Source: Escherichia phage VEc74. Taken from it: 64,000 nucleotides of DNA. Positions 6,937 to 59,509 of the stretch are shown here, one piece after another. The notes below the pieces were generated by a model. That model searched no databases and had not been told where the DNA came from. It worked only from the letters and a program-made list of their open reading frames with translations. Each line of letters opens with the position of its first letter. Position 1 is the first letter of the stretch. A program made the position numbers and the translations under genes. Location of the stretch: the sequence record MT932213.1, one strand, 5' to 3'.

Positions 6937-7661
6937 TATAGTACCTTTAGTGTATTTTTAATTTTAGAAAAAAGTTCTTCAAGAGAACCATCGTTTGTAA
7001 TTACTAAATCGCCATCACGAATTGGCAATCCAGCTTCTGTAATATGTGTATCATTGGATTTTTGACCAGGACGAACTACATGAATTACTGTAGCACCCAT
7101 CGCCCTAGCCGCATCCATTTCATGATCTTGACGGGTATCAGGAACGATATAATAATCATAACCTGAGTTAAATTTATCAAGATAATCTAAAGCAAATAAT
7201 TTTACCCAGTACATGCGGTCGAAGTTATTAACAATCAAATCCGTACCTAGGGCTTGCATCAGACGACGGACTGACCATTGATCTTCAATATTATTTATAA
7301 CGTCAATAATCTTGTTAAATGCTACGGAATTAACTGATTCTTGTCCTTCGTCATCAAAAACAAACACACCTTTAATTGGGCTTTTACCATTAAGATAGCA
7401 AAATGCTTGTTCCATAATGGTGATTACTTCTAATTTAGTCAGATTTAAATTAGTCTCACGATCATAGTCAATTCCTTCAAACTCTTTACGAGTTAAGCAA
7501 GGATAGTCAGTGTTTGCTGCAAATACTCCCCATGCATAAGCCAATGCATCCTTAATAGGACCAGCAAGTTGGTATTTAATTGCAGAATAATTGCTCATGA
7601 TAAAATCAGCAGTAGTATCTTTTCCACTACGCTTTACACCGCTTAAAAAGATTAGTTTCAT
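6936..7661 (-). CDS. 1: deoxynucleoside monophosphate kinase (gp1), 241 aa
   Basis: N-terminus MKLIFLSGVKRSGKDTTADF with P-loop GVKRSGKDT; start trimmed from ORF 6936..7700. Confidence 0.9.
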
Positions 7662-54744: not shown

Positions 54745-54772
54745 GGGGACCGAAAGGTCCCCATATTTTTAT
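54745..54772. terminator. bidirectional terminator between gene 54 (+) and the minus-strand alt block
   Basis: Hairpin GGGGACCGAAAGGTCCCC flanked by A-rich and T-rich tracts. Confidence 0.75.
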
Positions 54773-55059
54773 TTACGGAATGAAATGAAAGCAGCAACTG
54801 AAGCAACTAAACTGTCTTCAATATAAACTTCAATTTTTACCGGAGCTTCTGACTCAAATTTACCTGTTACTACACCCTGGAAAATACTTTCAGTCTGTTC
54901 TGGCTTTGAAAAATTTTCAGAAGGAAAAATTCCGAACTTTTTATCTGTTCCAAAAATTTTAATAAATTCATCGTAAACTGCTTCATTAAAAGCGTTATCA
55001 GCAGGAATAACGCCTTCAACTACAAGTTCTTGACCTAAAAAGCGCAAAGAAGATTTCAT
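54769..55059 (-). CDS. hypothetical protein, 96 aa
   Basis: Six-frame ORF downstream of the Alt-like pair. Confidence 0.55.
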   Translation of the reverse strand: MKSSLRFLGQELVVEGVIPADNAFNEAVYDEFIKIFGTDKKFGIFPSENFSKPEQTESIFQGVVTGKFESEAPVKIEVYIEDSLVASVAAFISFRK

Positions 55060-55119: not shown

Positions 55120-57177
55120 CTACATTTTGAACTTTTTAGACATTCCGTTGATGTTAACCAAAGAAGCTAAGATTTGAGAAACTTCGTTTTCCTCTTCTTT
55201 TGATTCTTCTACAAGGAATTGATTAAATCCAACCATTGGACGAACTTCACCAGTTTCCATTAGATGGTCGCCATCATATACTGATTCTTCTAATTGTTCA
55301 GAAGGAGGAACGATTGTACCTTCGATTAGATACTTGTTATAAGCCGTTTCTTTCATAAAGTACGTACTTACTTTATTAATCTTCAGTAAAATTCCACGAG
55401 GTAGAATAACTTCAGCTTCTGATGGAAATCCTGATAAATGACCTGGAACGATAACTTTGATTCGCTCAGCTCCTTTAATTACCATACCCACGCTAGTTTC
55501 AGCATCTTCATTGGCATATGTAGAATGACTACCCATATGCATCAAATGTTCTGCATCAACGGAACCTTCTCCTTCACCAGAAAATACTGCGCCGGAATCA
55601 TCTAGAGCCATATAGTTTTTACCATGCTCACCGAAGATATTTGGTTTAAGCGATGTCGATACGAAGTTCTTGAAATAGAACATTTTGTTTTCAATGTTAT
55701 GACGCAAAGTTTTAAAGGTAACTTCTTGTCCACGGTAAAGTGTAGTTCCTGGAGGAAGAACTGAACCTTTAGCGAATGCAGAATCCAACGTCTCGATGTG
55801 CTTAATAGCTCGTTCCATATATTCTTCACGGGTAGAATCTGGTTTACCCAAAAGGAACGAGTTCATTTCAACATATGAATCTGCACAATAATCTTCAATT
55901 ACATCAGACTCAGCCTGAGTCAGTCCTTTTGGAGTTACTTCAGTACTTGCATATTCATATGCCTGAGCAGCAGATTCATTAATCAATTTATAAATGCCAT
56001 TCATGACAAATTGAATAATAGCTGTCTTTTCATCTGGCGTAGCATTAGAACCTTTAACCAAATCATTGATAATTTTCTTAATAACATCAAAGCTATTAGA
56101 AATATTAATGTCAGCAAGATCGCTTAAAATTTTATCAGTTTTATAATCAAAGAATTCTTTATTCTTTAAATATTCTTGAGAACCTTGATATGTTATATCG
56201 CTTTGCAACTTGATAGATGGATCACGTAAACGTGCATGGGCTAATGCAATATGATTTCGGAAGTTTTCTAGTTCATAATCGCTAGATTTAAAACGAGAAG
56301 CACTTCTCATACCACCAATAGCTCCTTTGTTGAAGTTTGAACCAATCTGAATAACGCCAGAGTTCATTGGTCCTTCTGCTTTATATACCGGAACTTTAGA
56401 TTCAAACTCTTGATATTTCTTAGCAGCGAAGCTATCACCCTGAAGTGAAGCATCAACAGTAGAATATTGAGCTTGTGCTGCTAATCGACGACTAATTTTA
56501 GTTTTCTGAATAACAGCTTGATCCGTGCGCTTATCATTTTCTAAAGCAATAGAAGCAGCAACAGCGACAGCTTTAGGAACAGCATTACCTGTTTTAACGT
56601 CTACATAAACATCACCGACCTTTGATTCAACTTTTGTGAATAACTCAGTTGAAATAGGAGGTACACCTGGAATGTCTTCTAAATTGGCATTTTTACGGTA
56701 AACCATAATATATGCGTACTTTTTATCATAGTCCCAGATTTCCTTTAAAAGAACATATCGACCTGCTCCTTTAGTACGTACTAAACGGTCAGCAATAACT
56801 TGCATTTGACGAGCTGCGCCATTTGTTTTACTTTTTAGTACGCGGAATAAGCATGCGTCGATTTTATACTGCTTCATTGTTTGAAGAGCAGTATCAAAAA
56901 CCGCATTAATGACGCCAATTGGATTTCCACCCAAGTTTCTAAGCTTAACCAGCGATAATTTCTCGTTGACGCCTATCATTACGATATGCATCATTTTGTC
57001 GCCTGGCTTAACGTTTTTATTTGTATCACCGCCAGAGGTGTATGTACAAAATCTAAATCCAGGAAGCACACTTTCTTCGCCGGCTTGAATAGCAAAAATT
57101 TGTGGTATTTTATGCTTAGGATTTAAGTTAACAACCGGCGCCGAAGCGCCGTCAAATAATTCTGTAATAAGTTCCAT
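55120..57177 (-). CDS. Alt-family ADP-ribosyltransferase paralogue, 685 aa
   Basis: N-terminus MELITELFDGASAPVVNLNPKHKIPQIF parallels the adjacent copy; C-terminal R-S-ExE signature (YRGQE, FVSTSL, SEAEVILPRG). Confidence 0.85.
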   Translation of the reverse strand: MELITELFDGASAPVVNLNPKHKIPQIFAIQAGEESVLPGFRFCTYTSGGDTNKNVKPGDKMMHIVMIGVNEKLSLVKLRNLGGNPIGVINAVFDTALQTMKQYKIDACLFRVLKSKTNGAARQMQVIADRLVRTKGAGRYVLLKEIWDYDKKYAYIMVYRKNANLEDIPGVPPISTELFTKVESKVGDVYVDVKTGNAVPKAVAVAASIALENDKRTDQAVIQKTKISRRLAAQAQYSTVDASLQGDSFAAKKYQEFESKVPVYKAEGPMNSGVIQIGSNFNKGAIGGMRSASRFKSSDYELENFRNHIALAHARLRDPSIKLQSDITYQGSQEYLKNKEFFDYKTDKILSDLADINISNSFDVIKKIINDLVKGSNATPDEKTAIIQFVMNGIYKLINESAAQAYEYASTEVTPKGLTQAESDVIEDYCADSYVEMNSFLLGKPDSTREEYMERAIKHIETLDSAFAKGSVLPPGTTLYRGQEVTFKTLRHNIENKMFYFKNFVSTSLKPNIFGEHGKNYMALDDSGAVFSGEGEGSVDAEHLMHMGSHSTYANEDAETSVGMVIKGAERIKVIVPGHLSGFPSEAEVILPRGILLKINKVSTYFMKETAYNKYLIEGTIVPPSEQLEESVYDGDHLMETGEVRPMVGFNQFLVEESKEEENEVSQILASLVNINGMSKKFKM

Positions 57178-57180
57178 GAT

Positions 57181-59271
57181 TTATCCTTGAACGAACTTGT
57201 AAGGCATGTTTGTAATATCTATGCAAGACGCAATAATTCCAAGAGATGATTCTACTTTCTGTTTAACATTTGATGAAACAAATGATGCAAAGTCAACTCT
57301 ATCTTCTATATCACCTGTCATTGTAACCAATTCACCAGTTTCCATTAAATGGTCTCCGTCATAGATTACCGATTCAGTGAGTTCTTCTGTGGTCATAACT
57401 TCAGCTTGAATGAGTTTTGTATTATTAGACGTGGTTCCGTCATTATTAGAAGCATCAATTATTTTATTAACTTTGACCATCAATCCGCGCGGTAGAATAA
57501 CTTCAGCTTCTGTTGCTATTCCGAGACTTCCTGGATATACAACATTAACTTTATGAGCTCCATCAATTGCCCATCCTATTTGAACTTTAACGTATTCAGG
57601 ATTTTCTTTATACGCTCTTATTTCGTTTGGATTAATAGTTATTCCTTCTTCATTTTTATCAACTGTTAATTCATTACGAGCTTCTGGTTCTAAAAGACCA
57701 ATACCAGCATGTGTAATTCCAAAACGTCCAAAAATGATAGGAGTTAAAGAAGTAGATACAAAATTTCTGAAATAGAACACTTTATTTTTAACTAGTGCTT
57801 CGTATATAGGAGCAGTCATACTTTGAGCACGATAAACTGTAATGCCTTCCGGTATGCGGTCACCATTTTCAAAAGCTGAATCTAAATTATTTATAGCAGA
57901 TTCAATTTCTTTTTCACTCATTACATCATATCGTTCTGGATTGTAACGACCTAAAAGAAGATTATTAATGTCTGTATATCCTGAACCGCAATATTCTCTA
58001 ATGCCACGCTTTTGTGATGGAGTATATTTAGAACCATCACGGGCAATAGTAATATCAATCATTGGACCAGCACCAATTCCAGAAAAGCTATAAATCATTC
58101 GTTTGAGGAATTTAGTTTTTGCTGCATTCCAGGCATTTTTAGTTATTTCTCCCCAGACTTCATCTGGCTGCCCTTTACGAGTTTTATTATGTTTATCAAG
58201 CCAATTATCTTTATATTCTTCAAAGAGTTGATTAACAGCTGCTGCGTATTTCTCTAAACATTTTATTGAAGTAGTTGGTTCATTTTTAATCGCATTAAGA
58301 ATTACATCTTTAATTTTTTCAGAAACTTCATCAACCTCACTTTTTGAAAAGAATTTATATTCATAGTGAAGTTCATTTGCAGTTCCTTCAGCAATAATTT
58401 TTGCTGCCTTAGTTTTAGAAGCTAATGAATTAATTCCAAGCTTCATTTCTTCTGCTTCGGGAATTAAAGGAGCAGTAGCAGGTTTATTAAAATTAGCTGC
58501 GGTAGATTCATACTTCTGGAATAATTCACTTTCAAATCTAGAAGATTCTAATGATTGACTTTGCGCAATTGCTCTACGGGAAATTTTAACTTTAACGATT
58601 ACAGCTTGATCAGAACGTTTATCATTTTCTTGCGCAATAGATGCTGCAATTGCCTCATTTTTAGTTACTTGAGCTCCAGTATCTTTATTGATATAAACAT
58701 CACCGACCTTCGATTCAACTTTAGTAAAGAGTTCGGTACTAATTTCCGGAACTCCTGGAATGTCTTCTAGTGATACATTTTTGCGATGTATAAGAATATA
58801 TGCATACTTTTTATCATAATCCCAGAGTTCCTTAAGAAGGACGTATCTGCCACCTGAACGACTACGGATAAGTCTATCAGCAATAACTTGAATTTGTCGA
58901 GCTTGACCAGCAGTTTTAGACTTAAGAATACGGAGCATACAAGCATCAATTTTATATTGACGCATTGTTTGCATTGCAACAGTAAAAACTGAATTGATAT
59001 AATTAATTGGACTTGGACCAAGACCTTTCAATTTAGCAATTGAACCTTTAGCAGTTAATGTAAAAGGAACAATATGCATCATTTTATCGCCCATCTTTAA
59101 ATCACGATTAGTATCACCTCCAGATGTATAGGTACATAAACGAAAGCCTGGTTGTTCAATTGCATCATCAACGTGAACTGAAAAAATTTGCGGTATTTTC
59201 TTCTTTGGATTTAAGTTTGTAATCGGAAGAGTAGTATCTTCGTCAAATAATTCTGTAATGAGTTCCATCAT
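57181..59271 (-). CDS. alt: Alt ADP-ribosyltransferase (injected head protein), 696 aa
   Basis: N-terminus MELITELFDEDTTLPITNLNPKKKIPQIF; R-S-ExE signature (YRAQS, FVSTSL, ATEAEVILPRG); late promoter upstream. Confidence 0.85.
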   Translation of the reverse strand: MMELITELFDEDTTLPITNLNPKKKIPQIFSVHVDDAIEQPGFRLCTYTSGGDTNRDLKMGDKMMHIVPFTLTAKGSIAKLKGLGPSPINYINSVFTVAMQTMRQYKIDACMLRILKSKTAGQARQIQVIADRLIRSRSGGRYVLLKELWDYDKKYAYILIHRKNVSLEDIPGVPEISTELFTKVESKVGDVYINKDTGAQVTKNEAIAASIAQENDKRSDQAVIVKVKISRRAIAQSQSLESSRFESELFQKYESTAANFNKPATAPLIPEAEEMKLGINSLASKTKAAKIIAEGTANELHYEYKFFSKSEVDEVSEKIKDVILNAIKNEPTTSIKCLEKYAAAVNQLFEEYKDNWLDKHNKTRKGQPDEVWGEITKNAWNAAKTKFLKRMIYSFSGIGAGPMIDITIARDGSKYTPSQKRGIREYCGSGYTDINNLLLGRYNPERYDVMSEKEIESAINNLDSAFENGDRIPEGITVYRAQSMTAPIYEALVKNKVFYFRNFVSTSLTPIIFGRFGITHAGIGLLEPEARNELTVDKNEEGITINPNEIRAYKENPEYVKVQIGWAIDGAHKVNVVYPGSLGIATEAEVILPRGLMVKVNKIIDASNNDGTTSNNTKLIQAEVMTTEELTESVIYDGDHLMETGELVTMTGDIEDRVDFASFVSSNVKQKVESSLGIIASCIDITNMPYKFVQG

Positions 59272-59292
59272 ATCCTCTCTAGTGTTTATTCT

Positions 59293-59300
59293 ATTTATAA
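59293..59300 (-). promoter_or_regulatory. late promoter TATAAATA upstream of alt
   Basis: Minus strand TATAAATA about 20 nt before the alt ATG. Confidence 0.65.
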
Positions 59301-59307
59301 AATTAAA

Positions 59308-59319
59308 GGCCCGAAGGCC
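59308..59319 (-). terminator. hairpin GGCCTTCGGGCC downstream of ORF 59321..59509
   Basis: Perfect inverted repeat with flanking AAA/TTT. Confidence 0.5.
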
Positions 59320-59320
59320 T

Positions 59321-59509
59321 TTAATAATCTATAGGTAAGAGAGTACGATATATTTCAAACTTTGGACCTTTTTCATAAGCATCAAAAGTTTCTGTGAATT
59401 TATTATAAGCATATGCATCGATAAATTCAATCATGATTTGTGATACAGAAGTAGAAACATCTCCACCTTCTTTTTGAGCCACGACAATTGTTTCTAAGTA
59501 AGCTTTCAT
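59321..59509 (-). CDS. hypothetical protein, 62 aa
   Basis: Six-frame ORF, ATGA overlap with the ligase stop. Confidence 0.5.
   Translation of the reverse strand: MKAYLETIVVAQKEGGDVSTSVSQIMIEFIDAYAYNKFTETFDAYEKGPKFEIYRTLLPIDY

Follow-up and report, generated by a model that had tools for sequence, protein, structure and literature searches.

Alt serves in textbooks as the model case of a phage enzyme that is injected alongside the DNA and reprogrammes the host cell, and nearly all work on it has used T4. In that phage, the prohead core incorporates about 40 copies of Alt, which leave the head together with the DNA (PMC9026906), and gp21 cuts after ITE-6 and LTE-619, mapped by mass spectrometry, leave a 68.2-kDa enzyme (PMC5694885), in agreement with the 68,245 Da calculated for residues 7-619. 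Paralogs of Alt were noted in 2006, with T4 alt.-1 and alt.-2 and a full-length duplicate in phage 44RR as the cases (PMC1524935). The subject here is a pair of tandem Alt-family genes in Escherichia phage VEc74 (record MT932213.1, of which a stretch of 64,000 nucleotides, the window, was analysed), and the same pair was reported in a 2026 paper on phage 6phi13, at 43.29% identity and with functional divergence likewise inferred (PMC13600099). A literature search found no published characterisation of the extra Alt copies. The pair is thus already known, being annotated in databases (the RB32 record has had an alt.-2 CDS since 2006) and remarked on in papers, and what is added here is the exact origin of T4 alt.-1 and alt.-2, how old the two lineages are, and the cassette-like mosaic of the locus.

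An open reading frame (ORF) scan placed the two genes next to each other on the minus strand, at 57181..59271 (696 aa, copy B) and 55120..57177 (685 aa, copy A), with 3 nt between the stop of copy B and the start of copy A (TAA atc ATG). A preliminary description of the window, made from its sequence, had given the same ORFs, strand and gap, all of which stand, and the same 696-aa length, which is in all likelihood one residue too long. The upstream ORF starts with ATGATGGAA after a GAGAGGA ribosome-binding site, and its GAGG Shine-Dalgarno lies 5 nt from the second ATG (59268) versus 2 nt from the first; because the second ATG is the better spaced, and yields the MELITE N-terminus annotated in T4 Alt and numbered ITE-6 by mass spectrometry, copy B is most likely 695 aa long. 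The Shine-Dalgarno of copy A, AAGGA, overlaps the end of copy B. The parts of the two genes are as follows.

57181..59268, minus strand: copy B, the alt orthologue, T2-type allele, 695 aa (696 aa from the ATG at 59271); ORF scan, BLASTP and profiles
58552..59268, minus strand: copy B N-terminal domain, aa 1-239, of which the first 6 aa, MELITE, are the propeptide; same sequence as in T4 Alt (100% identity)
57388..58137, minus strand: copy B ADP-ribosyltransferase (ART) domain, aa 378-627, with VYRAQ, FVSTSL and EAEVILPRG; PF03496, 126 bits
57184..57372, minus strand: copy B predicted C-terminal propeptide, aa 633-695, past LTE-632; 98% identity with the 63 aa that are cut off T4 Alt by gp21
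55120..57177, minus strand: copy A, 685 aa, the other Alt paralog (alt.-2 of RB32, T2_202 of T2); ORF scan and profiles
56464..57177, minus strand: copy A N-terminal domain, aa 1-238, with the propeptide MELITE at its start; alignment
55318..55932, minus strand: copy A ART domain, aa 416-620, with LYRGQ, FVSTSL and EAEVILPRG; motifs
55123..55284, minus strand: copy A predicted C-terminal propeptide, aa 632-685, past LEE-631, holding YDGDHLMETGE; motifs

That each gene encodes a complete Alt-family protein, as had been proposed, was borne out by phrog_802 (Alt-like RNA polymerase ADP-ribosyltransferase), which matched copy A over residues 1-685 (852 bits) and copy B over residues 1-694 (908 bits). 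Both also scored above the gathering threshold of 23.4 bits for Pfam PF03496 (ADPrib_exo_Tox), copy A with 71.9 bits and copy B with 126 bits. PF03496 was the sole family in the Pfam scan of the two proteins, PF26846 (Tevenvirinae_ADPRT) being absent from the results of a local library that is possibly an older release; database records do list PF26846, in the N-terminal part, in homologues that share 88-98% identity with copy A and in the adjacent Alt. No NCBIfam model matched either copy, and a PDB sequence search with copy A returned nothing at E <= 0.01 and no structure of Alt or a near relative. The R-S-ExE signature said to be intact in both copies is indeed so, as the Arg, Ser-Thr-Ser and Glu-x-Glu elements listed above are all kept and align with LYRSQ, FVSTSL and EMEVILPRG of T4 Alt. 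The Ser-Thr-Ser is found in 15 of the 18 paralogs compared, the other three, all Dhakavirus copies, having S-A-S. In a structure model, the predicted fold superimposes on solved R-S-E ARTs of the C3/VIP2-like fold, and the C3, VIP2, iota and Vis mono-ADP-ribosylating toxins share this fold and the catalytic motif with the window copies. Identity to those toxins is just 14-24%, however, and they have neither the Tevenvirinae N-terminal domain nor propeptides for gp21, and are secreted or delivered as binary toxins rather than via a phage head.

Among the described relatives of copy B is T4 Alt itself (NP_049811), an NAD+--arginine ADP-ribosyltransferase and injected internal head protein, which occupies the same slot, between alt.1/gene 30 and alt.-3/gene 54, behind the same late promoter and with the same R-S-ExE signature. 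The two proteins are 72% identical overall, but this figure conceals a mosaic: in contrast to the identical N-terminal domain and the 98% identical C-terminal propeptide, the middle is 32% and the ART 64% identical, so that the central 380 aa of copy B, at 57388-58550 of the window, are a different allele from that of T4. The edges of the mosaic are sharp, near codons 240 and 620-660, with 16 synonymous and one non-synonymous difference in codons 1-240, near-identity again in the last ~35 codons, and heavy divergence between. Copy A is 45% identical to T4 Alt overall and 67% identical to it in the N-terminal domain.

Between themselves, copies A and B are 41% identical over their full length by BLASTP (E = 1e-162) and 44% identical in a global alignment, and the identity is spread most unevenly: 67% in the N-terminal domain (copy A residues 1-238), 16% in the middle (239-415), 37% in the ART domain (416-620) and 43% in the C-terminal tail (632-685). 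This agrees with the shared N-terminus and divergence further on that had been remarked upon at the outset. The residues right before the E-x-E are GFPSEAE in copy A and GIATEAE in copy B, and since these residues, the middle regions and the stretch from S-T-S to E-x-E all differ, the comparison suggests that the two enzymes have different, perhaps overlapping, sets of targets. The pair could instead be redundant, i.e., both enzymes could act on the same targets, mainly Arg265 of RNA polymerase alpha, with copy A just raising the injected dose. The domain order, catalytic motifs, promoter and propeptides are alike, and databases give both genes one name ("Alt-like RNA polymerase ADP-ribosyltransferase" in the RefSeq records of T2, slur02, Ozark and others). 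Set against these likenesses are the low identities of the ART and middle regions, the different residues before the E-x-E, and two lineages that have been distinct since before the split of Tequatrovirus and Dhakavirus (see below), when plain dosage duplicates would be expected to have been homogenised or lost, and redundancy is in our judgement unlikely.

The window phage is a Tequatrovirus, and a 4.9-kb region that includes the pair is 97-98.6% identical to the corresponding region of many T2-, T6- and RB32-like phages. The T2 pair (T2_203, X69893, and T2_202) matches that of the window at 98.6% for copy B and 99.0% for copy A, with the same order and spacing, and alt and alt.-2 of RB32 are essentially the same two genes. 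The population analyses were based on GenBank phage records (a scan for relatives in IMG/VR gave 5 loci), in which tblastn with copy A found an Alt-like gene in 1,222 records, of which 401 hold a copy A orthologue at 90% identity or above, one has a match at 80-90%, and the rest are below 60%; a cluster of 772 sequences stands at 98% identity to copy A. Among the sampled rows of this search, phages of Klebsiella, Acinetobacter and Enterobacter had mostly a single match. The intact pair is, then, the usual Tequatrovirus state, and it is annotated as standard in hundreds of genomes, those of T2, T6 and RB32 among them. An assembly artefact was ruled out by the occurrence of the same arrangement in hundreds of independent genomes. 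A metagenomic T4-like contig (Logan SRR23924977, 2242-6423) has the same two-gene layout, with a variant of copy A that is 74% identical and fills part of the identity gap among the cultured phages.

Whether T4 has an intact second copy or only fragments had been left as a question, and the answer is fragments: beside alt, T4 has two short ORFs, alt.-1 (61 aa, NP_049810) and alt.-2 (67 aa, NP_049809), at 7066-7451 of the T4 locus (L001). The alignment of these ORFs to copy A covers codons 1-117 and resumes only at the last few codons, so that the ART domain present in copy A is gone. Their families, phrog_23015 and phrog_15247, fit copy A (138 and 129 bits) better than copy B (78 and 70 bits). 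Two changes separate T4 from the window, the loss of 1 nt at window position 57018, which shifts the frame, and a 1,699-bp deletion of window positions 56838-55140, which lies between two copies of a 9-bp repeat of which T4 retains one.

56830..56838, minus strand: first 9-bp direct repeat CTAAAAAGT, upstream breakpoint; alignment
55131..55139, minus strand: second 9-bp direct repeat CTAAAAAGT, downstream breakpoint; alignment

The phage JK08 pairs a T4-type alt with an intact copy A, and Dhakavirus phages have orthologues of copy A in the same slot; on these comparisons, the T4 state is therefore a derived deletion and not a partial duplication, and the other phages carry no insertion. Two database notes give the opposite direction, that of RefSeq for T4 with an "old duplication of the first part of gene alt" and that for RB32 with an "apparent insertion" in alt.-2. 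The T4 junction was spanned in 91 phage records, and the sole remnant that was fully aligned, that of LH2, is collinear with that of T4, which argues for one deletion event rather than recurrent decay.

The deleted and frameshifted remnant in T4 and some 91 records, together with the weaker Pfam score of copy A, could be taken as signs that copy A is catalytically dead or decaying, i.e., solely a structural internal head protein or bound for the pseudogene state it has reached in T4. The junction common to all 91 remnants points to a single loss, however, and other findings also speak against decay: dN/dS among copy A orthologues is 0.04-0.07 at dS of 0.09-0.26, the frame is open over its full length in all of the orthologues translated, and the catalytic residues are whole in every copy A orthologue examined (with S-A-S for S-T-S in Dhakavirus). 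For copy B, dN/dS is 0.06-0.07, and strong purifying selection acts on both copies. Decay of copy A is thus extremely improbable.

The Dhakavirus phages provide a view further back in time. AnYang (L003, 864-7124) and WG01 (L011, 2365-8477) have three tandem Alt genes each and CLB_P2 has two; the genes are spaced 3 nt apart in AnYang and 8 and 3 nt apart in WG01. The first WG01 copy (631 aa) is without the conserved C-terminal propeptide. The T2-type ART is 94-95% identical to that of a Dhakavirus paralog whose N-terminal domain is just 46-47% identical. These arrays occupy the same genomic slot and have the same motifs as the window pair, but their N-terminal propeptide is MENLNE and not MELITE. 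Outside the N-terminal domain, copy A groups with the last Dhakavirus gene (46% identity in the middle, 58% in the ART and 67% in the tail), and copy B groups with AnYang copy 1 and WG01 copy 2 (65%, 94% and 55%, respectively). Because copy A and copy B each have an orthologue of their own in Dhakavirus, the duplication of Alt is older than the split between the two genera.

The N-terminal domains follow a different pattern, with identities of 66-89% within Dhakavirus, 67% within Tequatrovirus and 41-47% across the genera, and this domain seems to co-evolve with a genus-specific partner, for which the head core is the simplest candidate. Synonymous sites are saturated between copies A and B, and since synonymous differences are as dense in the N-terminal parts as elsewhere, at 23-30 per 60 codons, recent gene conversion between these parts was ruled out as a source of their likeness within a phage. 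The catalytic end of copy B has a different history, as codons 481-600 of its ART core differ from AnYang copy 1 at only 8-12 synonymous sites per 60 codons, versus 20-32 elsewhere in the gene, and this scarcity suggests that the catalytic cassette was exchanged between the genera recently.

The features that surround the pair, and those that bear on its expression, are the following.

59307..59320, minus strand: terminator-like hairpin A-GGCC-TTCG-GGCC-T, then TTTAATTTT, just past the alt.1 stop; sequence
59292..59299, minus strand: T4-type late promoter motif TATAAATA, 20 nt before the first ATG of copy B; motif scan
57888..57895, minus strand: second exact TATAAATA, within copy B codon 458 (peptide IESAINNLD), 711 nt ahead of the copy A start; motif scan
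54769..55059, minus strand: alt.-3, 96 aa, DUF5498, the neighbour downstream of copy A; ORF scan and Pfam

A single late promoter ahead of the pair had been claimed and was found, as TATAAATA at 59299-59292 on the minus strand; the motif occurs 21 times in the window against 10 expected. It is kept ahead of alt in T4 and T2, and the Dhakavirus version is CATAAATA. The GGCC-TTCG-GGCC hairpin, which is present in T4, T2, AnYang and WG01 as well, divides the gene 30/alt.1 unit from the alt late unit. No terminator-like hairpin was found on the minus strand between copy B and copy A, the next one being at 54764-54743, past alt.-3; with no terminator ahead of alt.-3, the late alt transcript probably reads on through that gene. 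The second TATAAATA may have arisen by chance, or it may give copy A a minor late promoter inside copy B. T2-type alleles (T2, WL-3) have it at the same place, AnYang copy 1 has it at a different one, and T4-type alt does not have it. We do not claim it as a dedicated promoter of copy A, given that it lies in a coding region 711 nt away and keeps its position only in T2-type alleles.

Two neighbours may be mentioned in passing. The alt.-3 gene has a match of its own to a sigma-70/early-type promoter (55119-55091, minus strand: TTTACA-17-TATAGT with TG), and C-terminal extensions of T4 Alt.-3 are escape mutations against the CmdTAC defence system (PMC11618068). Pfam PF24647, "Phage blade protein", covers the whole of the 62-aa alt.1 product (59321-59509, minus strand) at E = 7.5e-29.

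The proposed course of events begins with late transcription of both genes from the one TATAAATA promoter, and copy A would be translated by means of its own Shine-Dalgarno, 3 nt past the copy B stop. Each protein would consist of four parts, i.e., a conserved N-terminal domain of ~238 aa that opens with the MELITE propeptide, a divergent helical middle, an ART of the C3/VIP2 type with the Arg-Ser-Glu-x-Glu residues, and a C-terminal propeptide of ~55-63 aa. By analogy with T4 Alt, both proteins would enter the prohead core. At the level of motifs, ITE-6 is present in both copies, the second cleavage motif, L-x-E|S, lies ~55-63 aa before the C-terminus, as LTE-632 in copy B and as LEE-631 in copy A, and a conserved YDGDHLMETGE follows it in each. 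The L-x-E|S motif is kept in nearly all of the paralogs compared (it is L-A-E|N in AnYang copy 2), and an L-x-E is found at the equivalent position in the Dhakavirus paralogs. The presence of both gp21 motifs in both proteins lends indirect backing to the co-packaging proposed in the preliminary description, and because these motifs are kept and the late promoter is shared, both copies are probably packaged into the head, trimmed by gp21 after ITE-6 and L-x-E to enzymes of ~69-70 kDa, and injected. For copy A, we infer packaging, processing, injection and enzyme activity alike. Once ejected with the DNA, the two enzymes would ADP-ribosylate arginines of host proteins in the first seconds of infection, and most likely hit different, though perhaps overlapping, sets of targets.

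T4 offers a precedent for another course. ModA and ModB are phage R-S-E ARTs that act on host proteins, but they are of ~200 aa, early, not packaged, and of a different family from Alt; neither was matched in the searches made here. Copy A might, then, be an active but unpackaged ART that works late, in the cell where it is made, much as ModA and ModB work from within, and the literature search gave no data that place it in the virion. Yet copy A has MELITE, L-x-E|S and the YDGDHLMETGE tail, which T4 Alt loses inside the prohead, it is co-transcribed with alt from the late promoter, and its N-terminal domain tracks the Alt of its own phage rather than that of the other genus, which fits a shared head partner. 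An unpackaged role for copy A is, on this evidence, very improbable.

As a whole, the best explanation of the locus is that it holds two old T-even Alt paralogs that work by the proposed mechanism, and to this we assign a probability of roughly 80%. Several points weigh against it. Copy A scores less well than copy B on the ART profile, and its stretch between S-T-S and E-x-E is divergent and of lower confidence. The proposed divergence of targets is a reading of sequence divergence, and a literature search found no experiments on copy A, whether virion proteomics, an enzyme assay or a mutant. Furthermore, T4 and ~90 related records have lost copy A and the phages grow, and Alt itself is non-essential (PMC9026906), so that any function of copy A must be dispensable in the laboratory.

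A more specific version, which we put forward tentatively and at somewhat less than even odds, is that copy A is a separate injected effector with targets unlike those of classical Alt, e.g., other parts of the transcription or translation machinery or a defence protein, and that the alt locus is an array of cassettes. If this is correct, the loss of copy A by one 1.7-kb deletion would explain some of the differences between T4 and T2 or T6 in host takeover or in sensitivity to defence, and the alt locus, in the manner of the polymorphic internal-protein locus, would exchange divergent ART "warheads" while keeping the head-targeting ends conserved. By these comparisons T4, the phage of nearly all work on Alt, is the exception, having lost its second enzyme, and the injected set probably comprises two different ADP-ribosyltransferases in most T-even phages and three in some.

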